Assembly: GCA_963667285.1 (NCBI GenBank)
Contig: OY763326.1
Span: forward strand, 4,847,546-4,911,545
Length of the DNA stretch: 64,000 nucleotides
Source: Alphaproteobacteria bacterium
GTDB lineage: Bacteria; Pseudomonadota; Alphaproteobacteria; MPNO01
Reading direction: 5' to 3'
In this document: positions 19,922 through 57,202 of the stretch, in pieces
Layout: each line of letters opens with the position of its first letter
How positions within the stretch are numbered: the stretch's first letter is position 1
Position numbers and translations under genes: made by a program
The notes under the pieces: generated by a model
Seen by the model: the letters and a program-made list of their open reading frames with translations, nothing else
The model's database searches: none
What the model was told of the DNA's origin: nothing

Positions 19922-20730
19922 ACGCCCTGACGGCATTGCTGCGCGTCATGTCCGGATCGGGACGGGCGGGTTCGGCGTTTCGCGTCGTTGCCGGGTTCTT
20001 CCTCCTGTGGGAGGCGGGGTGCCGCGTCTTCGAGGCGCCCGTGTTCATCCTGCCGCCGCCATCGCTGGTCTTCTTGCGCTTCGCCGACGACCCGGCGCTG
20101 TTCGCCGAGCACACGGCCAACACGCTGTTCTACTGCCTGTTCGGCTTCGGCCTCGCCTTCGCGGCCGGCCTCGCGATCGCCGTCGGCATCGTCTATTCGA
20201 AGTTCCTCGAGAACACCCTCTTCACGCTGCTGGTGAGCCTCAACAGCATTCCCAAGATCACCCTGGCGCCGCTTTTCATCATCTGGATGGGGACCGGCTC
20301 GGCACCCAAGGTGGCGGTGTCGATGACGATCGCCCTGTGGGCCGTGGTGATCGACACGGTGCTCGGCCTGCGCTCGGTGGAACCGGACGTGCTGGACATG
20401 GCCCGTTCGATGCGTGCGTCGAAGCTTCAGGTGCTGTGGAAGATCCGCTTCCCGGCCGCCTTGCCTGCCATGTTCGCCGGAACCAAGGTGGCGATATCCA
20501 TGGCCCTGGTCGGCGTCATCGTCGGCGAGTTCGTGACCACCGACGTGGGCCTCGGCTTCGCCATCATGTCGGGACAGGGGAATTTCGACATCCCCATGGT
20601 CTATGTCTCGATCATCATCCTCGGCGTGCTGGGGACCTTGCTGTTCTACCTCGTCGACATGGTGGAACGCCTGGTCATCCCGTGGCACGTTTCCCAGCGG
20701 GCCGAGCCGGCCGGCCCGGGGAGCGCCTGA
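19918..20730 (+). CDS. ABC transporter permease (NitT/TauT family)
   Basis: Its ATG overlaps the ATPase stop (ATGA). Multi-TM BPD_transp_1-type permease. Confidence 0.85.
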   Translation: MNALTALLRVMSGSGRAGSAFRVVAGFFLLWEAGCRVFEAPVFILPPPSLVFLRFADDPALFAEHTANTLFYCLFGFGLAFAAGLAIAVGIVYSKFLENTLFTLLVSLNSIPKITLAPLFIIWMGTGSAPKVAVSMTIALWAVVIDTVLGLRSVEPDVLDMARSMRASKLQVLWKIRFPAALPAMFAGTKVAISMALVGVIVGEFVTTDVGLGFAIMSGQGNFDIPMVYVSIIILGVLGTLLFYLVDMVERLVIPWHVSQRAEPAGPGSA

Positions 20731-20748: not shown

Positions 20749-21558
20749 GTGAGACTGCTGGTCGCCCTTGCCGGCGCCCTGGCGGGCCCGGGACGCACCC
20801 GCACGGTGATCCTGGTCCTGATCGGGAGTCTGGCGCTGTGGGAGGCCGCGACGCTGGCGTTCCGCCCCGAACCCTTCGTGTTGCCCGCGCCCTCCGCGGT
20901 CTTCGCCGAAATCGGCAGCGACATTCCGTGGTACGCCAACCACGCGATGTTCACCCTGGGTGCCACGCTGATGGGCTTCGGCCTTGCCGTGCTGGCGGGG
21001 ACGCTGGCGGCGATCGGGATCGTCTATTCCCGAGTCCTGGAGCACACCCTGTACACCCTGCTGGTCTCCCTCAACAGCATTCCCAAGATCGCGCTCGCAC
21101 CCCTGTTCGTCATCTGGATGTCGACGGGCGCGGCCTCGAAGGTCGCCATCGCCATGACCATCGCCCTGTGGCCGGTGGTCATCGACACGGTGCTTGGCCT
21201 CCGATCGGTCGAGCCGGAAGCGCTGGAGATGGCCCGCTCGATGCGGGCGACCAAATGGCAGGTCTTCTTCAAGATTCGCCTGCCCAACGCCTTGCCCTAC
21301 ATGTTCTCCGGCATGAAGGTCGCCATTTCGATGGCCCTGGTGGGCGCCATAGGCGGCGAGTTCGTGGCGTCGGAGGTGGGTTTGGGCTACGCTATCCTGG
21401 TGGCCCAGGGCCAGTTCAAGACCGACGTCGTGTTTGCCGCCATCATCCTCCTCGGCATTATGGGGACGCTGCTGTTCTTCCTGGTCGTGCTGGTCGAGCG
21501 CTTTTTCGTGACCTGGCACGTCACGCACCGCGCCGACGCGCATATCCACACCGCCTGA
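20749..21558 (+). CDS. ABC transporter permease, second paralogous copy
   Basis: GTG start. Translation is strongly similar to the preceding permease (…LLVSLNSIPKI[T/A]LAPLF[I/V]IWM…TIALW[A/P]VVIDTVLGLRSVEP…). Confidence 0.85.
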   Translation: MRLLVALAGALAGPGRTRTVILVLIGSLALWEAATLAFRPEPFVLPAPSAVFAEIGSDIPWYANHAMFTLGATLMGFGLAVLAGTLAAIGIVYSRVLEHTLYTLLVSLNSIPKIALAPLFVIWMSTGAASKVAIAMTIALWPVVIDTVLGLRSVEPEALEMARSMRATKWQVFFKIRLPNALPYMFSGMKVAISMALVGAIGGEFVASEVGLGYAILVAQGQFKTDVVFAAIILLGIMGTLLFFLVVLVERFFVTWHVTHRADAHIHTA

Positions 21559-22341: not shown

Positions 22342-23322
22342 GTGCCTGACGCCCTTCCCGTTTCGGTCTGCTTCTGGAACTACGACCGGACGGCGGCCCT
22401 CGCCGACGGCCGGGCGCCGATGCGGGGCTGCGCGCCCGCCTTCACCATCCTGCCGCCCGAGGAAGCCTTCGCGCGCGCCTTTTCGACCGCCGAGTTCGAC
22501 ATTACCGAACTCTCCTTCAGCAACCACCTGACGGCGTTGAGCCAAGGCCGCGCCGCGTACACGGCAATTCCGGTCTTTCCGTCGCGAGCGTTCCGCCATG
22601 GCAGCCTGTTCGTCCGCACCGACCGGGACATCCGCGAACCGGCCCATCTGAAGGGCAGGCGCATCGGGCTGCAGGAGTACCAGATGACGGCGGCGCTGGT
22701 GGTGCGTGGCATTCTCCGGGACGACTACGGCATCGAACCCGGCGACCTCGCCTGGGTGGTCGGCGGCGTCGAAGAGCCCGGACCGCCGCGCGACCGTACC
22801 GAGATCCCCGGTGTCGCCATCGAGGCCGCGCCACCCGGCGAAAGTCTGGACGCGCTGTTCGCCGACGGCCGGCTGGACGCCCTGCTCGCCCTCCGGCCGC
22901 CGCCCTGCATTGCCGCCGGCGCCTACCCGGTGGGTCGCCTGTTCCCGGACTGGCGGGCGGCGGAGCAGGACTACTATCGGCGCACCGGCCATTTCCCGAT
23001 CATGCACGTCATGGGGGTCCGTCGATCCCTGCTGGACGAGCACCCCTGGCTGGCGCGGTCCGTTTACGATGCCTTCTGCCGGGCCAAGGACATTGCGGTC
23101 GGCGAGCTCGCCGTCATTCAGGCGCCGAAGGTAACCCTTCCGTGGGGCGCGGCGGAGCTGGAGGCGACACGGGCCTTGATGGGTGAAGACATCTGGCCCT
23201 ACGGCGTCGGCGCCAACCGCGAGACCCTGGATCGCCAGATCGGATGGTCCTGCCGGGAGGGCCTGTCGGCGCGGCGTATCCCGGTCGAGGCGTTGTTCGC
23301 CGCCGGCACCCTGGACACCTGA
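22342..23322 (+). CDS. 4,5-dihydroxyphthalate decarboxylase (PhtD)-like / NMT1-fold protein
   Basis: N-terminal VSVCFWNYDRTAALADGRAPMRGCAPAFTILPPEEAFARAFSTAEFDITELSFSNHL fits the PhtD family pattern. Confidence 0.7.
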   Translation: MPDALPVSVCFWNYDRTAALADGRAPMRGCAPAFTILPPEEAFARAFSTAEFDITELSFSNHLTALSQGRAAYTAIPVFPSRAFRHGSLFVRTDRDIREPAHLKGRRIGLQEYQMTAALVVRGILRDDYGIEPGDLAWVVGGVEEPGPPRDRTEIPGVAIEAAPPGESLDALFADGRLDALLALRPPPCIAAGAYPVGRLFPDWRAAEQDYYRRTGHFPIMHVMGVRRSLLDEHPWLARSVYDAFCRAKDIAVGELAVIQAPKVTLPWGAAELEATRALMGEDIWPYGVGANRETLDRQIGWSCREGLSARRIPVEALFAAGTLDT

Positions 23323-23360
23323 GGGAGGCGGGCCCCGATGAGGACGTTGGGACGCAATCG

Positions 23361-23693
23361 ATGAATGACGGTCCCCATGCTTCCGGTCACCACGACTACG
23401 GTGGAAAGCCCGCCGGTCGGATCGACACGACGCTCCACGGCGCCACGGTGTGGGAACAGCGGGTCGATGCGATTCTGGAACTGCTGGGCGATCCGCGCCG
23501 CAGGCTGATGCGAGTCGACGAGTTCCGCCGGATGAACGAGACCATGGCGCCCGAGGACTACGAACGGCTGACCTATTACGAGCGCTGGGTCCACTCCATC
23601 ACGCGGCTGATGATTCGCAAGGGCGTCGTCACGGAAGAGGAGCTCTCCGCAAAGATGTCCGAGATTCGCGCCCGCGGGGACGCGCCCCTGTGA
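23361..23693 (+). CDS. nitrile hydratase superfamily, beta-subunit N-terminal-half protein (ScnB / thiocyanate hydrolase beta-like)
   Basis: MNDGPHASGHHDYGG...WEQRVDAILELLG...YYERWVHSITRLMIRKGVVTEEEL matches the N-terminal domain of NHase beta (MNGxHDxGG...WEKR...YYERW...). It stops after 110 aa. Confidence 0.75.
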   Translation: MNDGPHASGHHDYGGKPAGRIDTTLHGATVWEQRVDAILELLGDPRRRLMRVDEFRRMNETMAPEDYERLTYYERWVHSITRLMIRKGVVTEEELSAKMSEIRARGDAPL

Positions 23694-23706
23694 CGGTTCG
23701 ACGGCC

Positions 23707-24003
23707 GTGACTCCCCGCTACGCCGTCGGCGACGCCATTCGGGTTGGCGATCGCCGGGAACCCGGACATGTGCGAACGCCGGGCTACCTGATGGGCCGGG
23801 AAGGTCGCATCCTGCGGGTCTGCGGCGCCTTTCCCGATCCCGGCCGGCTGGCCGAAGGCGGGCTCGGCCTGCCTTACCGGATGCTCTACCGGGTGGCGTT
23901 CCGGCAACGGGATCTTTGGCCGGACTATGGCGGACCGGATGCCGACGACCTGGTGACCGATCTTTACGAACACTGGCTGGAACCGCGGGACCGGACACCA
24001 TGA
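23707..24003 (+). CDS. nitrile hydratase superfamily, beta-subunit C-terminal-half protein (ScnA-like)
   Basis: YAVGDAIRVGDRREPGHVRTPGYLMGREGRILRVCGAFPDP...YRVAFRQRDLWPD matches the C-terminal SH3-like domain of NHase beta. 13-nt gap after the previous ORF. Confidence 0.75.
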   Translation: MTPRYAVGDAIRVGDRREPGHVRTPGYLMGREGRILRVCGAFPDPGRLAEGGLGLPYRMLYRVAFRQRDLWPDYGGPDADDLVTDLYEHWLEPRDRTP

Positions 24004-24608
24004 ACCATCCTCATCCTCATCCCCACGCCGCGCCGGCGGAGCGGGAGCCCGATCCGCAGATCGCCCTCAAGGAGATGGCCCTGCGGGAACTGCTGATCGA
24101 GAAGGGCGTCTTCACCGCCGCGGACATCCGGCGCGCCATGGAGGCGATGGAGGCCCGAAGCCCGGCGGTGGGCGGGCGAATCGTCGCCCGGGCGTGGCGC
24201 GACCCCGCCTTCAAGCGCCGTTTGCTGACCCATGCCAACGGGGCGGTCGCCGAATTCGGGGTCGCCATGGGCCTCGCCGAGTTGACGGTGGTCGAGAACA
24301 CGCCGGAGCTGCACAATGTCATCGTCTGCACCCTGTGTTCCTGCTACCCCCGGGCGCTGCTCGGAATTCCGCCGAGCTGGTACAAGTCCAAGGCGTATCG
24401 GTCGCGCGTCGTTCGAGAGCCGAGAGCGGTGCTTGCCGAGTTCGGCACCGATTTGCCTGGCGATGTCGTCGTCCGCGTTCACGACAGCACCGCCGATCTC
24501 CGCTACATGGTTCTGCCGCAGCGCCCGGCCGGTACCGATGACTGGGACGACGAGAGAATGGCGGCCCTGGTCACGCGCGATTGCCTGGTGGGGGTAACGG
24601 CGGCTTAG
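24000..24608 (+). CDS. nitrile hydratase alpha-subunit-like catalytic protein, cobalt type (ScnC/gamma-like)
   Basis: Metal-site motif VCTLCSCYPRALLGIPPSWYKSKAYRSRVV (Co-type VCTLCSC, not Fe-type VCSLCSCT) and C-terminal RYMVLPQRPAGTDDW. Its ATG overlaps the previous stop (ATGA). Unusual His-rich N-terminus MNHPHPHPH. Confidence 0.85.
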   Translation: MNHPHPHPHAAPAEREPDPQIALKEMALRELLIEKGVFTAADIRRAMEAMEARSPAVGGRIVARAWRDPAFKRRLLTHANGAVAEFGVAMGLAELTVVENTPELHNVIVCTLCSCYPRALLGIPPSWYKSKAYRSRVVREPRAVLAEFGTDLPGDVVVRVHDSTADLRYMVLPQRPAGTDDWDDERMAALVTRDCLVGVTAA

Positions 24609-25662
24609 AGCACTATCCTATCGAGTTGAATCGATTGTGATTTCCCAAGGTTTTGCGATTCGTGATCCACACTGTCTGCCGGGGAGGAGGCCGGCGGACA
24701 TGTCCCGAGCACTTTCCCTTGATCTTCGCGTACGTGTCGTGGCGGCGGTTGCCGCGGGGTTGAGCCACCGCGCGGCCGCGGCCCGTTTCGGTGTGAGCGC
24801 GGCGAGTATCAGCCGGTGGCGCCGGCGGGCGCGGCTGGAAGGCGATCCCGGCCCGAGGGCGGCGGGCGGCGACCGTCGTTCGGGCCGCATCGAGGCGCAT
24901 CGTGGGCTGGTGCTTGGGCTGGTCGCCGAGACCCCGGACATCACCATCGAGGAGTTGCGCCGCCGGCTTGCCGGGCGCGGGCTGAGCTTCGGCTACGGCA
25001 CCGTCCAGCGTTTCCTGGTGCGCCACAACATGACGCGCAAGAAGAAGACCGGCCATGCCAGCGAGCAGGATCGCCCCGACGTGCTGGCCCGGCGCCAGTC
25101 CTGGCGCGACGGCCAGGCCGGGCTCGATGCGGCGCAGCTGGTCTTCATCGACGAGACCTGGGCCAAGACCAACATGGCGCGTGCTTACGGCCGCGCGCCG
25201 CGCGGCGAGCGCCTGCGCATGAGCCGGCCGCACGGCCACTGGAAGACCTCAACCTTCGTCGCCGGGCTCACCGTGCGCGGCATGATCGCCCCCTTCGTGC
25301 TCGGCCGCCCGATCAACCGTGTCGCCTTCGAGATCTATGTCGAGAAGGTGCTGGTCCCCGAACTGCGTCCCGGCAACATCGTCGTCATGGACAACCTGTC
25401 CAGCCACAAAGGGGAGAGGGTGCGCCAAAGGATCGAGGCCGCCGGCGCCGAGCTCCTCTTCTTGCCGCCCTACTCACCCGACCTCAACCCCATCGAAATG
25501 GCCTTCGCCAAGCTCAAGGCGTTGCTCCGCAAGGCCGCAGAGCGCACCGTCGACGGCCTCTGGGACGCCATCGGAAACATCCTCAAGAGCTTCCAACCCC
25601 AGGAATGCAGAAACTACTTCGCCGCCGCTGGTTATGATCCAACCTGATCGGATACTGCTCTA
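24606..25662 (+). mobile_element. IS630-family insertion sequence (about 1.05 kb) with TA target duplication
   Basis: Imperfect terminal inverted repeats GAGCACTATCCTATCGAGTTGAAT (24608-) and the reverse complement of ...CCTGATCGGATACTGCTC (-25660), about 21 of 26 matches. TA at 24606-07 and 25661-62. Single DDE transposase ORF inside. Confidence 0.8.
24700..25647 (+). CDS. IS630-family (Tc1/mariner-like) DDE transposase
   Basis: N-terminal HTH (LSLDLRVRVVAAVAAGLSHRAAAARFGVSAASISRW) and DDE region (FIDETWAKTNM...VVMDNLSSHK...YSPDLNPIE). Confidence 0.85.
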   Translation: MSRALSLDLRVRVVAAVAAGLSHRAAAARFGVSAASISRWRRRARLEGDPGPRAAGGDRRSGRIEAHRGLVLGLVAETPDITIEELRRRLAGRGLSFGYGTVQRFLVRHNMTRKKKTGHASEQDRPDVLARRQSWRDGQAGLDAAQLVFIDETWAKTNMARAYGRAPRGERLRMSRPHGHWKTSTFVAGLTVRGMIAPFVLGRPINRVAFEIYVEKVLVPELRPGNIVVMDNLSSHKGERVRQRIEAAGAELLFLPPYSPDLNPIEMAFAKLKALLRKAAERTVDGLWDAIGNILKSFQPQECRNYFAAAGYDPT

Positions 25663-25900
25663 GTCTGTCGGGCCTGTGCCGGATGCACGAGATCGCCGAC
25701 GGCCTCACGGCCCGGCGCGTCGTCGGCGAATGGGTCGGCTTCGTACAACACCCGGGGGCCGCACGCGGCGCCGGGCGGGAGACCCGCGGCCGCGACCGGA
25801 ATATCGGTTCAGGGGAATGCCGGCGGCCTGAGCTTCAACCGGAATGCGCCCTGGCCCGGCCGCCAGGCTGTCCGAAAGGGTCGAGCCAGCTCAGCTCAGC

Positions 25901-26980
25901 TCAGCGCGCGCGGCCGAGGCGCCGCCCGTCCTCGCCGAACAGGAACAGGTGCTCCGGGGTGAAGCGCACGCCGAGCTCGGTGCCCGCGCGGTAGGACGAA
26001 ACCCCGTCGACGATGGCGATCAGATCCTGCTCGCCGCCATAGTCGAAATAGAGCAGCGTGTCCTTGCCGAGCGGCTCGACCAGGTGGATCTTCTCGACCA
26101 GCTCGCCCTCGGTGCCGACGGCGAGATGCTCGGGCCGGATGCCGAGCGTGCCGGGCCCCGGCTCCGCCGCGGCGAAGGCGGGCGGCAGAGCGATCGTCGT
26201 GCGGTCGCTGGCGAAGACGACCGACCCGTTCGACCGTTCGATCCTGCCGGGGATCAGGTTCATCGACGGGCTGCCGAAGAAGTCGGCGACGAACAGCGAG
26301 ACCGGGTCGCTGTAGATGTCGAGCGGCGTGCCGACCTGCTCGATCTCGCCGGCGCGCATCACCACGATGCGGTCGGCCAGCGTCATCGCCTCTTCCTGGT
26401 CGTGGGTGACGTAGATGAAGGTCTTGCGCAGCTCCTGGTGGAGGCGGTCGACCTCGGCCCGCATCTCGCGCCTGAGCTTGGCGTCGAGGCTCGACAGCGG
26501 CTCGTCGAGCAGGAAGGTGTCGGGGTCGGTGATCAGGGTCCGGGCGAGCGCCACGCGCTGCGACTCGCCGCCCGAGCACTGGCCGGGCATCTTGTCCAGC
26601 AGGTGGGTGATGCGGACCATCGCGGCCACCTCGCGCACCCGGCGGCGGCGGGTCGCGGGATCGACCTTCTGCATCCTCGGGCCGAACTCGATGTTCTGCG
26701 CGACCGTCTTGTGGGGAAACAGCGCGTGGCTCTGGAACACCATGCCGAGATTGCGGTCGCCGGGCTCGAGATCGTTGACCGGGTTGCCGTCCATCAGGAT
26801 CTCGCCGGCGCTCGGGTCCTCGAAGCCGGCGATCATGCGCAGCGTCGTCGTCTTGCCGCAGCCCGACGGCCCCACCATGACGAGGAACTCGCCGTCCTCG
26901 ATGGTCAGGCTGAGATCCCTGACCGCGACCACCGACCGGCCGAACTCCTTGCGCAGGTCCTGCAGCTCGATGCGTGCCAC
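25901..26980 (-). CDS. ABC transporter ATP-binding protein (carbohydrate/MalK-UgpC-like with C-terminal TOBE domain)
   Basis: Walker A GPSGCGKTT, signature CSGGESQRVALAR, Walker B FLLDEP and a C-terminal regulatory domain. Confidence 0.9.
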   Translation of the reverse strand: MARIELQDLRKEFGRSVVAVRDLSLTIEDGEFLVMVGPSGCGKTTTLRMIAGFEDPSAGEILMDGNPVNDLEPGDRNLGMVFQSHALFPHKTVAQNIEFGPRMQKVDPATRRRRVREVAAMVRITHLLDKMPGQCSGGESQRVALARTLITDPDTFLLDEPLSSLDAKLRREMRAEVDRLHQELRKTFIYVTHDQEEAMTLADRIVVMRAGEIEQVGTPLDIYSDPVSLFVADFFGSPSMNLIPGRIERSNGSVVFASDRTTIALPPAFAAAEPGPGTLGIRPEHLAVGTEGELVEKIHLVEPLGKDTLLYFDYGGEQDLIAIVDGVSSYRAGTELGVRFTPEHLFLFGEDGRRLGRAR

Positions 26981-36678: not shown

Positions 36679-36782
36679 GAAGGTCTCCGGCAAATGACAC
36701 CGCCGCGGATTTGATCGCCGGCGGTTTTCTGATACGACAAATATACGCGAATACGATAATCGGACCACAAGGGGGGAGCGCC

Positions 36783-37517
36783 ATGACGGAACGCAGGGTG
36801 GAGATTCTCGACCGCTCCGAGATGGTCGAGAAGATGACCGGGCTGCTTCACCTGAAGCCCGGCGAGACGGCGATCGTTACCGTCGACATGCATCGCGGCC
36901 ATCTCGACCCGGAGGTCGCGACCATGCCGGCGAAGGCGGAAGACAGCGCCCGGGTGATCGCCAACGCGAAGCAGGTCCTCGACCTCGCGCGCGGGCACGG
37001 CGTCCCGGTGATCCACGTCATCCTGGTCTATCGCAGGATTCCGGGTGTGGGCAGCGAGGGCATGACGGCGCCGTTCTGGGCCGCGATGTCGGAGATCACC
37101 GACGAGGAGAACCGCCTCACGCTCGGCCGCAAGTCGACCGTGAACGACCACAACATCGAGGGCAGCCCCGGCACCCAGATCATCCCGGCGCTCTACGCCG
37201 CGACCGACTACGTGATCGACAACAAGAAGCGCCTCGACTGCTTCATGGGCACCGACCTCGACATGCTGCTGGAGAACCTCGGGGCGCGGAATGTCTGCCT
37301 GATGGGCATCAACACCAACACCTGCGTGCTGAACACGGCGTTTACCGCGCACAACAGGAACTACGCCACGGTCGTGCTCTCGGACTGCGTCGCCAGCATG
37401 TATGGCGACGACCTCCACGAGTTCGGTCTCCAGAACGTCATGCGATGCCTGGGCTGGGTGCTCGACAACGAGCAGTTCGCGGCCAAGCTCGAAGCAGGCC
37501 GCCGGCTCAACGCTTAG
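36783..37517 (+). CDS. isochorismatase/cysteine-hydrolase family protein
   Basis: Family pattern with GETAIVTVDMHRGHLDP and catalytic-Cys region LMGINTNTCVLNTAF. ATG 36783. Its stop TAG 37514-16 lies inside the IS4 target duplication. Confidence 0.85.
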   Translation: MTERRVEILDRSEMVEKMTGLLHLKPGETAIVTVDMHRGHLDPEVATMPAKAEDSARVIANAKQVLDLARGHGVPVIHVILVYRRIPGVGSEGMTAPFWAAMSEITDEENRLTLGRKSTVNDHNIEGSPGTQIIPALYAATDYVIDNKKRLDCFMGTDLDMLLENLGARNVCLMGINTNTCVLNTAFTAHNRNYATVVLSDCVASMYGDDLHEFGLQNVMRCLGWVLDNEQFAAKLEAGRRLNA

Positions 37518-37518
37518 C

Positions 37519-38983
37519 CGCAATACTGTTCACTTTATGACTTTGATGCTGTTGACTGGATTGACGGCAGGGAGTGGAGGGGTGTCTGGCCGGCGCAGTG
37601 GGAACTTGCTCATTTTGCGTTTGACGGCGCGCGGGTTTTGCCGGTTTCGGCTGGAGACGACACGTTCCTGAAGGATTTCGTCGAGGACGGCGTCATGGAA
37701 GGCCTTGCTCTTCCGAGGGGGGAATGGCTACGGCGGCGGGCAGCTTTCGACGCACCACCCGCACAGCGTGAAGGAAGGAGAGGCGGTCCGGGTCTTCGTC
37801 GGCTTTCAGCGCGGCCTCATGGATCAGGCTTCGGATGGCGAAGTGCGCCATCATGAGGCCATAGAACTCCTGGCGGACGAGGTCCGGCGTCTTGCTGCGC
37901 AGGACGATCCTGGCGCCCCGCAGATGGGTCTTGAGTTCGTCGAGCGCGGTCTCGATTTCCCAGCGCTCATGATAGAGGGCCGCCAGCTCATGCGCCGGCG
38001 CCACGTCGTGGTCGAGGATCGTGGTGAGGAGACGATAGAACGGTACGGCGCCGCCGACACCCTCCAGCCGGTAGTCGATCGCCCGCACCGTGAGCCCGCC
38101 GGTCCGGTGGCGGCGATCCCGTTGCGAGGGATAGATGGTGCTCAGGTAAGAGCCGTCAGGCAATCGCCGCTCGGGAACCAGGCGCATGTTCTTCTTGACG
38201 CGCCAGAGCAGGTCGGCCCCGCTGCCGCGCGCCAGGGACCACAGCGCGAAGCCGAAGAACTGGCGGTCCGCCAAGCACAGCATGCCGGCCTCCAGCCGGC
38301 CAAGCACAGCTTTGGCGAGCGTGATCTCGCTCGTCCCATAGCCCGCCATCTCGCTGGCAAACAGCACATGCGTGCCGTTCTCCACCAGCGAGACAAAGCG
38401 CAGCTGCGGGAAGGCGCTGCGGCCCCGGCTGGCGCCGGGCCGGCCGAACGCCGCGGCGTTCGACGCCTCGTCGGCAACGTCCAGCGTGCTGCCGTCCAGG
38501 CTCACCAGACGCCATCGCCCATACCACGCCCCCCTGGTCAGCCGATCCGCAATCGGCTTCACCACCGCGCCATGCAGGCGGTGCAGCGGCTCCCAGCCAA
38601 GACGCGTGCGCGCCTGCGAGATCCCCGACTTGCCGGCCACCTCAAGCGCCTGCGACGGACCGGCCAGCCACTGAACCCCCTCCAGCAGGCAGCGCAGAAC
38701 CTCGCGGTAGGACGACTGCATGTAGAGCCCAAGCGCGATTACGTAATACACCACCACAGGCGCCGGAAGCGCACGCCGGCGCCGGCTCGACCGCCCGGTA
38801 TCCCGTAGGACAGACTGCACCGTATCCAGCGGAAACGTCTTCGCGATCACACCCAGACTGATGTAGTCGGTGACGCGAGAACCCGCCGGGAGCGTCCCAA
38901 CAGCGCGTGACATCGGCCTGACCCCTGCTGCGTCACAGGCCTACGACTGTAGCACCGATCAATCACTAAGTGAACAGTATTGC
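37519..38983 (-). mobile_element. intact IS4-family insertion sequence (1465 bp) with perfect 16-bp terminal inverted repeats and 8-bp target duplication
   Basis: IR GCAATACTGTTCACTT at 37519-37534 and its exact reverse complement at 38968-38983. Direct repeat GCTTAGCC at 37511-18 and 38984-91. Single transposase ORF inside. Confidence 0.8.
37693..38913 (-). CDS. IS4-family DDE transposase
   Basis: 406 aa with DDE blocks (RLVSLDGSTLDV..., CLADRQFF..., YHERWEIETALDELK), a pattern seen in IS4-family transposases. Confidence 0.85.
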   Translation of the reverse strand: MSRAVGTLPAGSRVTDYISLGVIAKTFPLDTVQSVLRDTGRSSRRRRALPAPVVVYYVIALGLYMQSSYREVLRCLLEGVQWLAGPSQALEVAGKSGISQARTRLGWEPLHRLHGAVVKPIADRLTRGAWYGRWRLVSLDGSTLDVADEASNAAAFGRPGASRGRSAFPQLRFVSLVENGTHVLFASEMAGYGTSEITLAKAVLGRLEAGMLCLADRQFFGFALWSLARGSGADLLWRVKKNMRLVPERRLPDGSYLSTIYPSQRDRRHRTGGLTVRAIDYRLEGVGGAVPFYRLLTTILDHDVAPAHELAALYHERWEIETALDELKTHLRGARIVLRSKTPDLVRQEFYGLMMAHFAIRSLIHEAALKADEDPDRLSFLHAVRVVRRKLPAAVAIPPSEEQGLP

Positions 38984-38989
38984 GCTTAG

Positions 38990-39277
38990 CCCGCATTTCC
39001 CGCCAGGGTCATGGTCTGCGCGGCGCTGTCCGGCCGACAGGGCAGGAGAGGCGCGCGGCGCGATGCGGGGACATCGGGCAAGCGCCTCGACGCACCCTGT
39101 CGGCCGGACAGCGCCGCCCCTTCGACACGCTCAGGGCAGGCTCGAAGGGTCGCGCGCAGGCGCCCGCCCGCTGCGTCGCGGGCCTCGACCGTAGTGCCTG
39201 CTACGCTCTTCGGCCCGCTCCTGGCGGATCGAACGCCTGCGCGCGACGCAGACCGTGACCCTGGTGAGAAATGCGGG
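38990..39277 (+). repeat. MITE-like palindromic repeat element, copy A (288 bp)
   Basis: Terminal inverted repeats CCCGCATTTC(C/T)C(G/A)CCAGGGTCA(T/C)GGTCTGCG ... CGCAGACCGTGACCCTGGTGAGAAATGCGGG. Flanked by TTAG (left) and CTAG (right). Two more copies lie at 44019-44281 and 53542-53805. Copy A carries a ~22-bp indel relative to copies B and C. Confidence 0.7.
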
Positions 39278-39925
39278 CTAGGCGTCGGCGGGGAAGTCGG
39301 GCTGTTTCGCCGGATGGGCATCGGCGAACGCATCGAGCGCCATGCAGGTCTCGAAGATCCGCATCGCCGTCGGGTAGGGCTCCATCGGACAGCCGAACAT
39401 GCGCGAGCCCACGATCTGCGGCACCAGGCAGAGATCGGCGAGGCCGGGCCGGTCGCCGTGGCAGAACCGCCCGGTGCCGGGGCCGGCCGCCAGATGCGCC
39501 TCCATCGCCTCCAGACCGGCCCCCATCCAGCGGCGGATCCAGGCCCCGAGCTGCTCGTCCGACAGGTCGAGATCCTCGGTCAGGTATTTCCGGATGCGCG
39601 GGACGATCAGCGGATGGGTGTCCGAGCTCGCGATCTGGGCGATGCCGCGCACCCGGGCGCGGCCCCCGGGGTCGGCCGGGAGCAGCGGCGGTTCGGGGCG
39701 GGTCTCGTCGAGATATTCGACGATCGCGAGCGACTGGAAGAGGGTCGTGCCGCCGTCGACCAGGGCGGGGACCACGGGTTGCGGGTTGACCGCGCGATAG
39801 GCGCCCTCGAACTGGTCGCCTTCGAGCAGGTCGACCGTCTCGATGTCGCAGTCCATGCCCTTGAGGTTGAGCGCGATGCGCACGCGAAACGACGCGAGCG
39901 AACGCCAGTAGCTGAACAGTTTCAT
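39278..39925 (-). CDS. maiA: maleylacetoacetate/maleylpyruvate isomerase (glutathione S-transferase zeta class)
   Basis: GST zeta pattern (MKLFSYWRSLASFRVRIALNLKG...NPQPVVPALVDGG...SLAIVEYLDE). Its stop codon is the CTAG flank of MITE copy A. Confidence 0.8.
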   Translation of the reverse strand: MKLFSYWRSLASFRVRIALNLKGMDCDIETVDLLEGDQFEGAYRAVNPQPVVPALVDGGTTLFQSLAIVEYLDETRPEPPLLPADPGGRARVRGIAQIASSDTHPLIVPRIRKYLTEDLDLSDEQLGAWIRRWMGAGLEAMEAHLAAGPGTGRFCHGDRPGLADLCLVPQIVGSRMFGCPMEPYPTAMRIFETCMALDAFADAHPAKQPDFPADA

Positions 39926-39957
39926 CCTTCCCCTCCAATACGCCCCGGAGGCGCGCC

Positions 39958-41091
39958 GTGAGCGATACAGGAACCAGCCGCTTCGCCAAACTCTTTTCGC
40001 CCGGGCGGATCGGCGGCGTGGCGCTCGGCAACCGGACGGCGGTCGCGCCGATGACCCGGATCAGCGCCGGCCCGGGCGGGCTCGCGACCGACGGGATGGC
40101 GGCCTATTACGCCGACTATGCGAAAGGCGGGTTCGGGCTGGTGATCACCGAAGGCACCTATATCGACGAGGCCCACAGCCAGGGCTATGTCGACCAGCCC
40201 GGCATCGCCAACGACGCCCAGCGCGATTCCTGGAAGAAGGTGGTCGACGCGGTCCACGCGCAAGGCGTGCCGATTTTCATGCAGCTCCTGCACGCCGGCG
40301 CGCTGATCCAGCACAACGACCATGTCGGCGAGGCGGTCGCCCCGTCGGCCGTCGAGCCGGTCGGCGAGATGGCGCCGCACTACAAGGGCGCGGGCCGGTT
40401 CCCGGTGCCGCGCGAAATCTCGCGCCGGGAGATGACCGACGTCGCCGCCGCGTTCGGCGCCGCCGCGCGGCGCGCGGTCGAGGCGGGGTTCGACGGGGTC
40501 GAGATCCACGGCGCGAACGGCTACCTGGCCGACCAGTTCCTCACCGACTACACCAACCGGCGCGACGACGAATATGGCGGGCCGACCGCGCGACGGGTGC
40601 GCTACCACACCGAGATCGTGGCCGTGGTGAAGCGGGCGCTCGACGGCCGCGCGCCGTTCGGGATCCGCATCTCCGAGACCAAGGTCAACGACCTCGCCCA
40701 TAGCTGGGCGGGCGGCGCGGACGATGCGCGGACGATTTTCGGCGCGATCGGCGAGGCCGGGCCGAGCTATATCCACGTCAACGCCCATCGCGGCTTCGAG
40801 CCGGTCTTCGGAACCGGCAAGTCGCTCGCGCGCCTGGCCCGCGAAGCCGCGCCGCGCGACGTCCGGATCGTCGCCTGCGGCAAGCTCAACGACCCGCTGC
40901 TCGCCGAAGCCTTGATCGAGGACGGCACCGCCGATGCCGCCGCGATCGCCAAGGGCGCGCTCGCCGACCCAGGCTGGCCGGCGAAGATCGCGCGCGGCGA
41001 AGCGCCGGTCGCCTTCGATCCGGCAATGCTCCGCCCCTACGCGACCCTGGAAAACGTGAGCGAGTGGAGAGCGGGCAAGGGTCCCGGCTGA
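39958..41091 (+). CDS. NADH:flavin oxidoreductase / Old Yellow Enzyme family (alkene reductase)
   Basis: OYE pattern (RTAVAPMTRISA...GFGLVITEGTYID...HGANGYLADQFL). Confidence 0.85.
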   Translation: MSDTGTSRFAKLFSPGRIGGVALGNRTAVAPMTRISAGPGGLATDGMAAYYADYAKGGFGLVITEGTYIDEAHSQGYVDQPGIANDAQRDSWKKVVDAVHAQGVPIFMQLLHAGALIQHNDHVGEAVAPSAVEPVGEMAPHYKGAGRFPVPREISRREMTDVAAAFGAAARRAVEAGFDGVEIHGANGYLADQFLTDYTNRRDDEYGGPTARRVRYHTEIVAVVKRALDGRAPFGIRISETKVNDLAHSWAGGADDARTIFGAIGEAGPSYIHVNAHRGFEPVFGTGKSLARLAREAAPRDVRIVACGKLNDPLLAEALIEDGTADAAAIAKGALADPGWPAKIARGEAPVAFDPAMLRPYATLENVSEWRAGKGPG

Positions 41092-43940: not shown

Positions 43941-44018
43941 CCTGGCACCGCCCCCTGTCTCGACGATCGACCGTCCCATGAGCGAATTTGGGGAGCGGCG
44001 TGCGGACCCCCGGGCCAG

Positions 44019-44281
44019 CCCGCATTTCTCACCAGGGTCACGGTCTGCGTCGCGCGCAGGCGTTCGATCTGCCAGGAGCGGGCCGAAAAGCGTAGCAGGC
44101 ACTACGGTTAAGGCCCGCGACGCAGCGGGCGGGCGCCTGCGCGCGACCCTTCGGGCGGCGCTGTCAGGCCGACAGGGTGCGTCGAGGCGCTTGCCCGATG
44201 TCCCGCATCGCGCCGCGCGCCTCTCCTGCCCTGTCGGCCGCACAGCGCCGCGCAGACCATGACCCTGGCGAGAAATGCGGG
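44019..44281 (-). repeat. MITE-like palindromic repeat element, copy B (263 bp)
   Basis: Same TIRs as copy A, in reverse-complement orientation. Flanked by CCAG on both sides. Confidence 0.7.
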
Positions 44282-44312
44282 CCAGGGGGCGCACGCCGCT
44301 ATGCGAGCCGCC

Positions 44313-50678: not shown

Positions 50679-50785
50679 GGTGGTCTCCGTTCGGTGTACC
50701 GGCCAAGCCGATCTTGGCGGGATCTTCCCCCGCGCAGGCCAGAGCGTCTACTCTGCTCAAGCCGGGCCGCCGGCGGGAGAGTCTC

Positions 50786-51907
50786 GTGAAGTTCTCATAC
50801 ACCCATCACATGCCCTACACCCATGTCGAGGAGGCGGGGCAGGACTGGCCGGTCCCCAACAAGCAGTTCGACCCGGAGAAGGGCGTCGCGCTCTATCGCG
50901 AGTACATCGACAACAAGGTCTTCGCCGAGGAGGTCGGGTTCGACTGGATCGGCTGCAACGAGCATCACATGAGCCCCTACGGCTTGATGCCCAACCCCAA
51001 TCTCACCGCCGCGGCCATCATCGAGCGCACGAGGACGGCCGGCATCCTGCAATCGGGCAATATCGTGCCGCTGACCAACCCGATCCGCATCGCCGAGGAA
51101 TACGCCATGCTCGACGTGCAGTCGGGCGGGCGGCTGATCGCCGGGTTCATGCGCGGGATCCCGCACGAATACGTCGCCTACAACGTCTCGCCGGACGACT
51201 CCTACCCCCGCATGCGCGAGGCCTGCGAGCTGATCGTCAAGTGCTGGACCGAGCCCGAGCCTTTCGGCTGGGAGGGCGAGCATTACCGCTACCGCGCGGT
51301 CTCGATCTGGCCGCGCCCGGTGCAGCAGCCGCATCCCAGACTCCTGATGTCCGGTTCCAGCCCGGACTCGGTGCGTCTCGCCGTCGCCTTCCGCGCGACC
51401 ATCGGGCTGCTTCGAATCACCGACTTCGAGAGCGCGCGCGAGATGCGGGACCTGTACACCGGCCTGGCCCGGGAAGACGGATGGGAACCGCAGCCCGAAC
51501 ACTTCATGGTCGGCATGCCGTGCTCCATCGCCGACACCGCGGAAGAGGCGATGGAAACCCTCAGGAACGGCACCAGGTATTTCCTCGGGGTGCTCGGCGG
51601 CGGAATCCGGACGGCGCAGCGTCTCGTCTTGCAGAAGACACGCTATTACCGCGAGGCGGCGCATCGCGAGCGGTTCCCCGGCCTCGCCACGCGTCGCGAG
51701 ACGCCGCTCGAAGAGTTGATGGAGAAGGGGCTGGTGCTGTGCGGGACCCCGGACATGGCGGTCGCCCAGATCAAGCGGGCCAAGGCGGAGCTCGGCCACG
51801 GGCTGATGAACCTCAACATCAAGATCGGCAACACCCCGCAATCGGCGGTGCTGCGAACCATGCGGGCGCTGCGCGACCATGTCTTCCCGGCGGTACGGGA
51901 TGTCTGA
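50786..51907 (+). CDS. LLM-class flavin-dependent oxidoreductase (luciferase-like monooxygenase), paralog 1
   Basis: GTG start with GGGAGAG RBS. Bacterial-luciferase-fold pattern. About 90% identical to paralog 3 over the N-terminal half. Confidence 0.85.
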   Translation: MKFSYTHHMPYTHVEEAGQDWPVPNKQFDPEKGVALYREYIDNKVFAEEVGFDWIGCNEHHMSPYGLMPNPNLTAAAIIERTRTAGILQSGNIVPLTNPIRIAEEYAMLDVQSGGRLIAGFMRGIPHEYVAYNVSPDDSYPRMREACELIVKCWTEPEPFGWEGEHYRYRAVSIWPRPVQQPHPRLLMSGSSPDSVRLAVAFRATIGLLRITDFESAREMRDLYTGLAREDGWEPQPEHFMVGMPCSIADTAEEAMETLRNGTRYFLGVLGGGIRTAQRLVLQKTRYYREAAHRERFPGLATRRETPLEELMEKGLVLCGTPDMAVAQIKRAKAELGHGLMNLNIKIGNTPQSAVLRTMRALRDHVFPAVRDV

Positions 51908-53502: not shown

Positions 53503-53541
53503 GATCTGTCCCTTGCTTCCGCGCGACCGGCCGGATCCTAG

Positions 53542-53805
53542 CCCGCATTTCTCACCACTGTCACGGCCTGCGTCGCGCCCAGGCGTTCGATCCGCCAGGA
53601 GCGGGCCGAAAAGCGTAGCGGGGACTACGGTTAAGGCCCGCGACGCAGCGGGCGGACGCCTGGGCGCGACCCTTCGGGCGGCGCTGTCCGGCCGACAGGG
53701 TGCGTCGAGGCGCTTGCCCGATGTCCCCGCATCGCGCCGCGCGCCTCTCCTGCCCTGTCGGCCGGACAGCGCCGCGCAGGCCATGACAGTGGTGAGAAAT
53801 GCGGG
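53542..53805 (-). repeat. MITE-like palindromic repeat element, copy C (264 bp)
   Basis: Same TIRs, flanked by CTAG on both sides. The right CTAG contains the TAG stop (minus strand) of LLM paralog 2. It lies in the promoter region of hydrolase paralog b. Confidence 0.7.
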
Positions 53806-54930
53806 CTAGAGGTCGCGCACGGCCGGCGCGACATGCTCGCCCCACAGCGTCATGCTGCGGCGCACCGCGGCGTCGGAGATGTTGCCGATCTTCATGTTGA
53901 TGTTCATGACGCCGTGGCCGAGCTCGGCGTGCAGATGCCTGACCTGCTCGATCACCCGGTCGGGCGTGCCGCACAGCACCAGGCCCTTGTCGATGCGCTC
54001 CTCGATCGTGGTCTGGCGCAATGCCGCGAGCCTGGCGCCGAGGGTCTTGCGGTTGGCCTCGTCCTCGTAGAACCGCGTCTTCTGTATCACCAGCCGCTGC
54101 GCCGTCCGCGGGCCGCCGAACAGCACGTGGTAGAAGTAGTCGAGACCGCCGCCGAGATGGCGCCGTGCCGCCTCGTCGTCCTCCGCGACGCAGGTATGCG
54201 CGCCGACGAGAATGTCGTCGACCGCGGGTTCCCAGCCGTGCTCGCGGGCGGTTTCCCTGTAGATCCGGATGCAGTTCTTCGCAGCCTCGAGATCGGTCAG
54301 CATCACCATCCCCATCTTCGCGCGGTGGCGCGCGGCGAAGCGGGCCGATTCGGGGCTGCTCGCCGACATGAGGATCGGCGGATGGGGTTGCTGGATCGGA
54401 CGGGGCCAGATCGACACCGCGCGGTACTTGTAGTGCTTTCCCTCCCAGCCGAACGGCTCGGGCTCGGTCCAGGCCTTGAGGATCAGCTCGGACGCTTCCT
54501 CCAGCCGCTCCCAGGACTCGCTGGGCGCGATGTTGTAGGCGACGTATTCATGCGGGATCCCGCGCATGAAGCCCGCAATCAGCCGGCCGCCCGACATGAC
54601 ATCCAGCATGGCGTACTCCTCGGCGACCCGGATCGGATTGAGAAGCGGCACCAGATTGCCGAACATGGCGATGCGCGCGCGCCTGGTGCGCTGGATCAGC
54701 ACCGTCCCGATGAGGTTGCAATTGGACATCAAGCCGTATGGGCTGAAATGGTGCTCGTTGCAGCCGATCCAGTCGAAACCGCACTCCTCGGCGTACACCA
54801 TGGTGTCGATGTAGGTCTCGTAGAGCGCCGTCGCGCGGTCGGGCACGAACCTCTTGTTGGCGACCGGCCAGTCCTGGTCGGTCTCCTCGATGTCGGTCCA
54901 CGGCATCAGGTGGAAGTAGTTGAATTTCAT
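53806..54930 (-). CDS. LLM-class flavin-dependent oxidoreductase, paralog 2
   Basis: MKFNYFHLMPWTDIEETDQDWPVANKRF... luciferase-like pattern. More divergent than paralogs 1 and 3. Confidence 0.85.
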   Translation of the reverse strand: MKFNYFHLMPWTDIEETDQDWPVANKRFVPDRATALYETYIDTMVYAEECGFDWIGCNEHHFSPYGLMSNCNLIGTVLIQRTRRARIAMFGNLVPLLNPIRVAEEYAMLDVMSGGRLIAGFMRGIPHEYVAYNIAPSESWERLEEASELILKAWTEPEPFGWEGKHYKYRAVSIWPRPIQQPHPPILMSASSPESARFAARHRAKMGMVMLTDLEAAKNCIRIYRETAREHGWEPAVDDILVGAHTCVAEDDEAARRHLGGGLDYFYHVLFGGPRTAQRLVIQKTRFYEDEANRKTLGARLAALRQTTIEERIDKGLVLCGTPDRVIEQVRHLHAELGHGVMNINMKIGNISDAAVRRSMTLWGEHVAPAVRDL

Positions 54931-54972
54931 GCAGAAGCACCCTGGAGATCGCGGTCGGCGCGGAGCATTCGC

Positions 54973-56097
54973 CTACAGATTCCGGACCGCGGGAAAGACG
55001 GTTTCCTTGAGGTGGCGCATGGTCGTCGTCACCGCGGCGTCGGGCGTGTTGCCGATCTTGATATTGAGGTTCATGCGCCCATGGCCAAGCTCGGCCTTCA
55101 CGCGCCGCAGCTGGTCGATCACCATGTCGGGAGTGCCGCAGAGCAGCAACCCCTTCTCGATCCGCTCCTCGATGGGCACCTGTTTGACCTTGCTCGGTAG
55201 TCCGGGGAAATTCTGCCGCGACTCCTCGTGCTCGAAATAGCGGGTCTTCTGGATCACCAGTCGCTGGGCCGTCCGGATGCCGCCGCCGAGCACCTCGAAG
55301 AAATACTTCTGGCCGGCCTTCATGGTCTCGACCGCCTCGTCCTTCGTGCCGGCGATGCAGCATCCCATGCCGACCATGAAATGGTCGGGTCCGGGCTCCC
55401 AGCCATCGGACCTCGCGACTTCGCGGTAGACGTCCATCATCGCCCGCGCCTCGTCGAAGCTGGTCAGGCGCAGGACACCCATGGTCGCGCCCAGCTCGGC
55501 CGCGAGCGTGGCCGATTCCCGGCTCGTGCCCGACATCACCAGGGGTGGGTGGGGCTGCTGCACCGGGCGCGGCCAGATGGACACCGCGCGGAACCGATAA
55601 TGCTCGCCCTCCCAGCCGAAGGGTTCCGGCTCGGTCCAGCATTTGAGGATCAGCTCGCACGCCTCGCGCATGCGCGAATACGATTCGTCGGGAGCCACGT
55701 TGTAGGCGACGTATTCGTGCGGGATCCCGCGCATGAACCCGGCGACCAGCCGTCCGCCCGACTGGACGTCGAGCATGGCGTATTCCTCGGCGATGCGGAT
55801 GGGATTGGCCAGCGGCACGATGTTGCCCGACTGGAGGATGCCGGCCGTCCTCGTGCGCTCGATGACGGCGGCCGCGATCAGGTTGGGGTTGGGCATGAGC
55901 CCGTAGGGGCTCATGTGGTGCTCGTTGCATCCGATCCAGTCGAACCCGACCTCCTCCGCATACACCTTGTTGTCGATGTACTTGCGGTAGAGCTCGGCCC
56001 CGCGCTTCGGGTCGAACTGCTTGTTGGCGACCGGCCAGTCCTGCCCTGCCTCCTCCACATGGGTGTAGGGCATGTGGTGGGTGTAGGAGAACTTCAC
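54973..56097 (-). CDS. LLM-class flavin-dependent oxidoreductase, paralog 3
   Basis: MKFSYTHHMPYTHVEEAGQDWPVANKQFDP... nearly identical to paralog 1 through about residue 190, then diverges. Confidence 0.85.
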   Translation of the reverse strand: MKFSYTHHMPYTHVEEAGQDWPVANKQFDPKRGAELYRKYIDNKVYAEEVGFDWIGCNEHHMSPYGLMPNPNLIAAAVIERTRTAGILQSGNIVPLANPIRIAEEYAMLDVQSGGRLVAGFMRGIPHEYVAYNVAPDESYSRMREACELILKCWTEPEPFGWEGEHYRFRAVSIWPRPVQQPHPPLVMSGTSRESATLAAELGATMGVLRLTSFDEARAMMDVYREVARSDGWEPGPDHFMVGMGCCIAGTKDEAVETMKAGQKYFFEVLGGGIRTAQRLVIQKTRYFEHEESRQNFPGLPSKVKQVPIEERIEKGLLLCGTPDMVIDQLRRVKAELGHGRMNLNIKIGNTPDAAVTTTMRHLKETVFPAVRNL

Positions 56098-56158
56098 GAG
56101 TCCTCGCCGGTCGGTGGCGACGGGCGGTGCGGCGCGGGCGCGCCGCCCGCTGGCCTCG

Positions 56159-57202
56159 CTATCTCAAGCCCATGATCTTGCCGTATTTCTTTCTCAGCCG
56201 GAGACCGTTCTCCTGGACATATTCCCGGGTCAGCCAGCCAATCTTCTTGCCGGCGGCAAGCTTGTTCAGGTCGTTCCCCTCGGTGGTGACGAAACCGGTG
56301 CCGTCGATTTCGTTGAGCGCCTGCTGGCCATCCGGGGTGGTAATCCAATAGGCCCAAAGCTTGGCGAGGTTGGGGCTCTTCGTGTCCGACATCAGATAGT
56401 ATGACCAGTTCGAAAGCGCGATGGGATCGATCGGCGCCATCTTGACCGGCGCGCCCTGGCGGATCTGCTTGAACGCGTCCGTCCCGATCGACAGCGCGAA
56501 CTCGCCGGTCAGGACCTTGCCGCGGACATCGGGGAACCGCGCCATCATCTTGGCCTGGCCCTTCGCCATGATCTCGGTCAGGAGCGCGGTGGCCTTCTCT
56601 TCACCGATCGCCGCGGCCAGATAGATCCACGGGCTCGGCGAGCGCGGCATCGCGATCCGGCCCTTCCACTTGGGATCGAGCAGGTCGTCCCAGCTCCGCG
56701 GCGCCTCGGAATCCTTCACCAGGTTGGTGTTGTAGGTAACGAAGCACAGGCTGACGTCGTGCGACTTGACCCCGTATTCGCTGGCCCGCAGCGAGGCCGG
56801 GATGCCGAGTTCCTTGACCCAGTCGACCTTCTGGACCGCCCCGGAACGTTCAAGGCGCACGCTGGTGCTGTAGGACGTCCAGAACACGTCGAAACCGGTG
56901 GGCACCCCCTTCTTGATGGCCAGCGCGACCTCGGCGGCCTTCTTGGTGTGGAAGCCTCCACCCATGTTGAGCTCGATCGGGAACCCGTAGAACGCGTTGA
57001 GCCGCTTGGAGAAGGCGCGGACCGCGCTGGGCTTCAGCGTGCGGCCGTACACCGTGATCTCGCCTTCCTTCTTGGCGCCTTCAACCAGGGCCTGCACGCC
57101 GGGCGGCAGATCGCGCGCCGTGGCCGGTACCGAGGTCAGGGTTGTCAGCGCCGCGGCGGCCAGGGCCAGCGCGCCCGCGTGTCGAATGCTCCTCCGCAAC
57201 AT
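56159..57202 (-). CDS. Fe3+/thiamine-type ABC transporter substrate-binding protein
   Basis: Signal peptide MLRRSIRHAGALALAAAALTTLTSVPATA and SBP_bac_6/8-like pattern. Confidence 0.85.
   Translation of the reverse strand: MLRRSIRHAGALALAAAALTTLTSVPATARDLPPGVQALVEGAKKEGEITVYGRTLKPSAVRAFSKRLNAFYGFPIELNMGGGFHTKKAAEVALAIKKGVPTGFDVFWTSYSTSVRLERSGAVQKVDWVKELGIPASLRASEYGVKSHDVSLCFVTYNTNLVKDSEAPRSWDDLLDPKWKGRIAMPRSPSPWIYLAAAIGEEKATALLTEIMAKGQAKMMARFPDVRGKVLTGEFALSIGTDAFKQIRQGAPVKMAPIDPIALSNWSYYLMSDTKSPNLAKLWAYWITTPDGQQALNEIDGTGFVTTEGNDLNKLAAGKKIGWLTREYVQENGLRLRKKYGKIMGLR

Follow-up and report, generated by a model that had tools for sequence, protein, structure and literature searches.

Why transposable elements should come to lie exactly in the stop codons of genes that they leave intact is the question raised by a 64,000-nucleotide stretch of an alphaproteobacterial genome (contig OY763326.1, positions 4,847,546 to 4,911,545; the whole stretch is referred to here as the window). 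In this window, an insertion sequence (IS) of the IS630 family occupies the stop codon of a nitrile hydratase (NHase) alpha gene, and an IS4-family element and some copies of a miniature inverted-repeat transposable element (MITE) also touch stop codons. The original prediction, made from the sequence alone, regarded stop codons as AT landing pads in GC-rich DNA. They are indeed frequent landing sites, but the cause lies in CTAG/YTAR specificity (Y, C or T; R, A or G) rather than in TA scarcity; the association is very probably the outcome of the known CTAG preference of IS630-type elements combined with selection.

The IS630-family element in the NHase alpha gene

The IS630 element starts with GAGCAC and ends with a GTGCTC-like sequence, and its terminal inverted repeats (GAGCACTATCC... 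and ...GGATACTGCTC) match at 19 of 24 positions. Its transposase open reading frame (ORF) is preceded by a GGAGG-like sequence at 24684-24690 and has its own stop (TGA, 25645-47). The protein matches the NCBIfam model NF033545 with 209 bits (cutoff 100) over profile positions 2-298 of 299, as well as the Pfam domains DDE_3 (E 7e-31), HTH_23 and HTH_28, and it is at most 76% identical to any entry of the genome collection. On these features, the element is apparently intact and a member of a known family. Its DNA finds only a 74% match in the plasmid collection, in which no empty site was found.

The stop codon of the NHase alpha gene, TAG at 24606-24608, is made up of the TA of the target and the first base of the IS, and the right flank, after the second TA, starts with GTCTG. 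Removal of the element and of one TA yields GCGGCT-TA-GTCTGTC, which again contains TAG, in a TTAG target. When this reconstructed site is compared with the closest homologous gene (L082), the alignment is gap-free at the junction, with exactly 2 nt between the flanks, and therefore the boundaries of the element, the 2-bp duplication and G as its first base are correct. The placing of the element in the stop codon, as originally predicted, is borne out, and so is the claim that the earlier sequence also read TAG, so that the insertion most likely left the NHase alpha protein unchanged. With TA in each copy of the duplication and G as the base that follows, the in-frame TAG must have preceded the arrival of the IS.

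A different history, in which the IS truncated an NHase alpha gene formerly 12-16 codons longer and the present stop is a product of the insertion, has to be weighed here. Two homologues, P0001 (92% identical) and P0002 (91%), carry TCG and TTG, respectively, where the window has TAG, and read on for 12 and 16 codons beyond this position. The first ~40 bp of the right flank (from 25663) are moreover homologous to the 3' coding tail that is translated in the closest homologues. Truncation by the IS is nevertheless very unlikely, because the duplication places an in-frame TAG before the insertion, and an IS630-type insertion cannot make TAG from TTG. In addition, the NHase alpha tail varies among homologues in length and sequence (3-19 residues past GVTxA), and the genes downstream of the homologous operons differ from those of the window, so that these homologues do not represent alleles of the same locus. 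The refuting condition named originally, an empty-site allele with another stop or C-terminus, is approached by these homologues, which have TTG or TCG and a longer C-terminus, although they are not true empty-site alleles.

According to these data, the stop of the window's NHase alpha gene is lineage-specific, and the order of events was probably a point change (TTG/TCG-like to TAG) first and the IS insertion afterwards. This point change would have shortened a non-conserved C-terminal tail, creating at once a TTAG target and an early stop. As the tail is variable and the conserved core terminates at GVTxA, the protein of 202 aa is likely to be functional; the metal-binding motif CxLCSC (VCTLCSCYP) is conserved in the alignment with homologues.

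The insertion also seems to have been close to neutral for the NHase operon. The original prediction had the IS separating the operon from a downstream gene, for example an activator, with possible effects on polarity. This could not be upheld: no co-oriented gene lies downstream of the NHase alpha gene and the IS, where 238 bp lead to a convergent ABC ATPase gene, and no activator or accessory gene that the IS could have severed was found there or after alpha in the two closest homologous operons (L081 and L082), in which alpha is likewise the last NHase gene and is followed by unrelated genes. A promoter and terminator scan of positions 24400-26000 gave nothing above the shuffled expectation, and there is thus no evidence that the IS displaced a terminator.

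Two further observations concern the NHase genes. NHase beta is split into an N-terminal and a C-terminal ORF, which results in a three-ORF layout (23244-24608), and some database homologues of NHase alpha are labelled thiocyanate hydrolase gamma (P0092). No exact-protein record was found for the window's NHase alpha, IS630 transposase (ATG start) or IS4 transposase.

Target preference of the IS630 relatives

The relatives of the IS630 element were collected by a protein-guided scan of one genome per species, which yielded 80 loci with transposase relatives (best identity 76%); both ends of the element were placeable in 55 of them. All 55 show ends of the type TA-GAGC...GCTC-TA, and their reconstructed targets are CTAG (41), TTAG (8), CTAA (5) and TTAA (1). 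For 11 of these insertions, the site coincides exactly with the stop codon of a gene-like ORF; the remainder comprise 37 intergenic insertions and 7 inside ORFs. A Pfam check of 10 ORFs ending at the junctions identified seven that look like naturally ended genes (amidase, Amidase_2 with PG_binding_1, CobD, DUF6279, ROK, LuxR-type and recombinase), while one further match, an AI-2E transporter, looks truncated.

The background was taken from the 261 kb of flanks of these relatives, in which stop codons represent 2.8% of TA, 15% of CTAG and 20% of CTAG outside ORFs. With coding sites set aside, the stop share is 11/48 for the insertions and 23/117 for the background CTAG sites (odds ratio 1.2, p=0.67). 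The original prediction proposed a genome-wide tabulation in which insertion sites would be enriched at stop codons; among these relatives, the stop share is no higher than the CTAG background. About one in five insertions lands exactly in a stop codon and no special mechanism is needed for this, as target specificity and the loss of intragenic insertions completely explain the stop association.

At one locus (L073), an AI-2E transporter ORF covers only 116 of the 327 profile positions before it is closed by an in-frame TAA, and it is this codon that an IS630 relative occupies. As in the NHase gene, the occupied stop codon appears to be premature.

MITEs derived from the IS1380 family

The three MITEs of the window (A, B and C) are ~90% identical, 265-290 bp long and without an ORF of their own. 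Their termini read GCCCGCATTTC(T/C)C..., with GCCCGCATTTCTCACCA as the 17-nt terminus. This exact 17-mer occurs in >120 metagenome contigs, where TA precedes 121 of 139 ends; when the junction is read with the element's first G, it is CTAG in 89 and TTAG in 28 of them (117/139 together). Paired ends delimit MITEs of 48-750 bp and, in addition, six elements of 1.63-1.75 kb (L089, L093, L094, L133, L167 and L191) that share the 17-nt terminus. The ORFs tested in L093, L094 and L167 match PF13701 (E down to 1e-159), and those of L094 and L167, the two checked, also match NF033539. Because their termini are identical to those of elements encoding IS1380-family transposases, the MITEs are IS1380-family derivatives, unrelated to the IS630 element. 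A derivation from IS630 was rejected, as the MITE ends are unlike the IS630 ones and correspond to those of IS1380-family elements.

With regard to the duplication, a 2-bp TA within YTAR fits 41 of 54 MITE end pairs and a 4-bp reading fits 24, and a strict 4-bp duplication is consequently not favoured. In the 4-bp reading, the flanks of the window MITEs are CTAG/CTAG, CCAG/CCAG and TTAG/CTAG; for a palindromic CTAG target, the two readings are indistinguishable.

MITE A touches stop codons at both ends, that of an isochorismatase-family gene (plus strand) and that of a convergent GST gene (minus strand), whose TAG (39280-39278) is formed by the right TA and the last MITE base. A true, syntenic empty site is found in L225, where the isochorismatase protein is 90% identical, the same GST gene is convergent and the two called genes overlap by CTAG. 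The reconstructed site of the window, AACGCT-TA-GGCGTC, aligns gap-free with L225. This comparison confirms the reading that MITE A inserted into the TA common to two overlapping convergent stop codons, and its duplication provided each gene with a separate stop. MITE C adjoins one stop, that of a luciferase-like monooxygenase gene. The claim that the MITE copies behave like the IS630 element holds for A and C, but not for B, which has CA/CA flanks and is located 27 bp from the stop of a minus-strand gene ending at 44313.

The MITEs form a long hairpin, which in MITE A (38988-39281) is near-perfect, with a predicted energy of -231 kcal/mol (z = -14 with respect to shuffles). Such a structure could act as a bidirectional terminator or as a stabiliser of mRNA ends between the formerly overlapping convergent genes. 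A 39-nt stretch at 59046-59086, 72% similar to the MITE terminus (AACCCGCATTCCCGGCC...), is a candidate fourth MITE end at 59048. It begins at the stop-codon TA of a minus-strand gene (59046-60203), inside the 3' end of this gene, and may represent the remains of a MITE end or have arisen by chance. In the contigs L083-L202, the 17-nt terminus is conserved over a range of 44% to 75% GC, two recurrent internal motifs appear downstream of it (..TTCGTAGCGA and ..TCTACTGCG), and the sizes of the MITEs cluster sharply at 177-178 bp and 232-233 bp.

The IS4-family element

The third type of element belongs to the IS4 family. The prediction that its 8-bp duplication, GCTTAGCC, covers the isochorismatase stop (37515-17) proved right, although the element starts at 37520 and not at 37519, one base earlier, as had been given. 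The last three bases (GCC) of the right duplication are the first three of MITE A. As the duplication includes these bases, the IS4 element arrived after MITE A. No closer matches than 72-73% to its DNA were found in the plasmid collection.

Among relatives of this element (transposases 79-98% identical) and three plasmid copies, nearly every flank follows NN-YTAR-NN. The perfect 8-bp duplications are GCTTAGCT, GGTTAGCT and GGTTAACC, the same length is seen in L218, L219 and L221, and the consensus of the subgroup, with YTAR at its centre, approximates GGCTAGCC. In L217, an IS4 copy is flanked by the stop codon of an arginase gene. At an unrelated locus (L206, 1422-2930), a 98% identical IS4 copy has the TAG stop of a His_Phos_1 gene (183 codons) on one side and an IS1380-type MITE end, TAGTCCGCATTTCTCACCA, on the other; IS4 may have a preference for the CTAGCC formed where MITE and stop meet. 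Together with the IS630 element and the MITEs, this makes three unrelated transposase families within 64 kb that have a CTAG-type target in common.

Sites available in the window

The explanation originally proposed is that any TA is scarce in GC-rich DNA, so that stop codons serve as generic landing pads for TA-requiring elements. Indeed, TA occurs at half its expected frequency in the window (881 versus 1,764), and three of the four TA-type insertions are in stop codons. However, only 19 of these TA (2%) belong to stop codons and 862 lie elsewhere, and 319 TAG trinucleotides are found as against 17 TAG stops, which contradicts the claim that sites containing TA or TAG are rare outside stop codons. 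The depleted sequence is CTAG, with 11 occurrences versus 197 expected (~18-fold).

The chance of at least three of four TA-type insertions in stops is p = 4e-5 if all TA sites are equivalent, p = 0.006 among non-coding TA sites and p = 0.19 when the count is restricted to YTAR sites outside coding sequence in the GC-rich part, ~40% of which are stop codons. Eight of the 19 TAG/TAA stops of the window are in YTAR, and four of these eight (three insertion sites) touch a mobile element. A generic scarcity of TA is therefore extremely improbable as the cause: it leaves the window pattern unexplained even among non-coding TA sites, and neither the 55 of 55 IS630 relatives in YTAR, instead of arbitrary NTAN, nor the CTAG or TTAG at 117 of 139 MITE ends would be expected from it.

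Within the otherwise 67% GC DNA of the window, positions 300-1650 form an AT-rich stretch with a low-GC ORF (~505-1233), directly upstream of which lies a short ORF (~64-260). This stretch contains 19 of the 48 YTAR sites of the window and looks like a foreign island.

Active homing, in which the elements prefer stops beyond their CTAG specificity, a behaviour either evolved or guided by some feature of terminating genes, with the G...C termini as a TAG-restoring adaptation, has also been considered. The convergence of three unrelated transposase families on one motif and the two occurrences of IS4 at a stop/MITE junction agree with it, as does the occupancy of YTAR sites in the window, to which we return below. 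Homing is nonetheless unlikely, given that the stop share of the IS630 relatives equals that of background CTAG, that 37 of their 55 insertions are intergenic and that the window sample is tiny.

Several points weigh against explaining the association by CTAG preference and selection. Of the window's YTAR sites, 3 of 7 in stop codons but 0 of ~10 in intergenic DNA carry an insertion (Fisher p ~0.05), a difference compatible with a modest additional preference for gene ends. MITE B is inserted in CCAG, not in YTAR. The genes in the flanks were called with a crude GC3-based caller, which misses genes and inflates the intergenic class; the same caller was used on observed and background sites alike. 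The family tables were built from relatives with transposases 43-76% (IS630) or 79-98% (IS4) identical, not from the exact elements. Finally, the NHase junction was not found in an IS-free form, nor did the exact 20-mer of the predicted empty site have a match in the metagenome contigs, so that the order of stop first and IS second is deduced from the duplication.

Proposed origin of the association

In the mechanism favoured here, the IS630 element, a Tc1/mariner-type and presumably cut-and-paste transposon, integrated into the TA of TTAG and duplicated this TA, its subfamily having retained the classical 5'-CTAG-3' preference together with one-off variants (YTAR). As the IS starts with G and ends with C, both junctions again read (C/T)TAG, and an ORF ending in the target TAG retains its stop. 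The frequent coincidence with stop codons would then arise because of three circumstances: the IS630 subfamily, the IS1380-derived MITEs and the IS4 element all recognise CTAG-type sites; CTAG is strongly depleted in 67% GC DNA, where an in-frame TAG after C or T would be one of its few refuges; and selection would remove insertions inside genes.

A further and rather unlikely step is that at least three families co-resident in GC-rich alphaproteobacterial genomes (IS630, an IS1380 subgroup and an IS4 subgroup) acquired CTAG-centred targeting independently of one another, as a safe-haven strategy. CTAG would be almost absent from the interiors of coding sequences and would persist mainly at gene ends, and G...C termini would rebuild TAG on both sides, so that even overlapping convergent stops could be split without damage. 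The ends of the elements would create new CTAGCC sites that seed nested insertions, as with the IS4 element found twice next to a MITE end, and the pressure from CTAG-targeting elements might itself add to the depletion of CTAG.

For the annotation of GC-rich genomes, these results mean that a gene ending in (C/T)TAG directly before GAGC..., GCCCGCATTTC... or an IS4 end should be regarded as intact with a neutral insertion, and not as disrupted. For transposon biology, they provide target logos for the IS1380 and IS4 subgroups, and the proportion of one insertion in about five in a stop codon is a quantified consequence of a CTAG-type targeting shared by three families in 64 kb. For the NHase operon, the insertion has placed an intact, co-oriented transposase gene within possible reach of read-through transcription.

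Features of the window

Table 1. Coordinates of the mobile elements, their target duplications and the adjacent genes in the window.
Feature	Position	Strand	Basis and remarks
NHase beta N-terminal-half ORF	23244..23693	+	Pfam PF21006 NHase_beta_N, E 6e-19; true start probably further downstream
NHase beta C-terminal-half ORF	23707..24003	+	Pfam PF02211, E 2e-20; stop overlaps alpha start (ATGA)
NHase alpha gene, 202 aa	24000..24608	+	Pfam PF02979, E 1e-79, profile 3-184/184; alignment with homologues
Left TA target-site duplication copy	24606..24607		Sequence; homologue alignment
IS630-family insertion sequence, 1,053 bp	24608..25660	+	Left inverted repeat (IRL) 24608-24631, right inverted repeat (IRR) 25637-25660
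Intact IS630 transposase ORF, 315 aa	24700..25647	+	Co-oriented with NHase genes; NCBIfam NF033545, Pfam DDE_3 and HTH
Right TA target-site duplication copy	25661..25662		Sequence; homologue alignment
Right flank and spacer	25663..25900		Alignment with homologues; spacer reaches convergent ABC ATPase gene
ABC-transporter ATPase gene, convergent	25901-26980	minus	Pfam ABC_tran
Isochorismatase-family gene	36711..37517	+	Pfam PF00857; homologues 244 aa; stop TAG 37515-17
Left IS4 8-bp duplication copy, GCTTAGCC (GC-TTAG-CC)	37512..37519		Sequence
IS4-family insertion sequence, 1,464 bp	37520..38983	minus	Perfect 16-bp terminal repeats GCAATACTGTTCACTT
IS4 transposase	37693-38913	minus	NF033592, 222 bits (cutoff 115); PF13006 and PF01609
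Right IS4 8-bp duplication copy	38984..38991		Sequence
MITE A, 290 bp	38989..39278		Termini GCCCGCATTTC...; flanks TA 38987-88 and TA 39279-80
GST gene	39278..40060	minus	Pfam GST_N/GST_C; convergent with isochorismatase gene; same arrangement in L224/L225
MITE B, 265 bp	44018..44282		CA/CA flanks (CCAG); not in stop codon
MITE C, 266 bp	53541..53806		In CTAG site; right TA 53807-08
Luciferase-like monooxygenase gene	53806-54972	minus	Pfam; stop is MITE C right TA plus last MITE base

The window also holds repeated genes. Three genes are paralogous, two of them (53806-54972 and 54973-56163) in tandem on the minus strand with 72-80% identical DNA and the third inverted at 50783-51684 (81% over 902 nt). 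A comparable tandem pair is found at 20183-20482 and 21014-21313 (77%).

Comparison with known systems

The literature searched describes the CTAG preference, and the case of IS870/ISMt1, which use the TAG of the target as their own stop; no statement of host stop codons as preferred sites of IS630 or MITEs was found in it. The preferred site published for IS630 is the TA of CTAG (Tenzen & Ohtsubo 1991, cited in PMC2170065), and IS870 has the same preference (Fournier et al. 1993, cited in PMC6471742). More generally, CTAG is under-represented and has been recognised as a target of ISs (PMC6471742). With IS630 from Shigella sonnei and the IS630/Tc1/mariner family, ISY100 and IS870 among them, the window element shares a single DDE transposase with N-terminal HTH domains, a length of ~1.05 kb, within the ~1-1.4 kb of the family, short inverted repeats at its ends, and both the TA duplication and the preference for TA in a CTAG context. 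Its transposase is no more than 76% identical to any entry of the genome collection searched. Unlike IS870, it has its own stop and borrows no target TAG; it is the host gene's stop that lies in the target.

MITEPsy1 from Pseudomonas syringae, an IS5-related MITE, inserts at CTAG or YTAA with a 4-nt target duplication (PMC3189936). The window MITEs are similar to it in combining a CTAG-type insertion with a target duplication, but MITEPsy1 differs from them in its transposase family, its termini, the 4 nt of its duplication and the lack of a reported link to stop codons.

The MITEs of the window share their 17-nt termini with the 1.63-1.75 kb elements matching NF033539/PF13701, which places them beside the IS1380 family. 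Descriptions of this family generally give a duplication of 4-5 bp. In contrast, a 2-bp TA duplication within YTAR fits the flanks of the present subgroup better.

The IS4-family element shows the characteristics of its family, namely a DDE_Tnp_1 transposase that carries the N-terminal domain of IS4, terminal repeats without mismatch, a duplication of fixed length and a symmetric target consensus. The hotspot of IS10, NGCTNAGCN, is likewise a symmetric target consensus. The window subgroup differs from the IS10-like pattern in its 8-bp duplication and in its YTAR-centred consensus near GGCTAGCC. No description of the target of this IS4 subgroup or of this IS1380 subgroup was found in the literature searched. 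The elements of the window are new members of known families, and their association with stop codons is an expected by-product.

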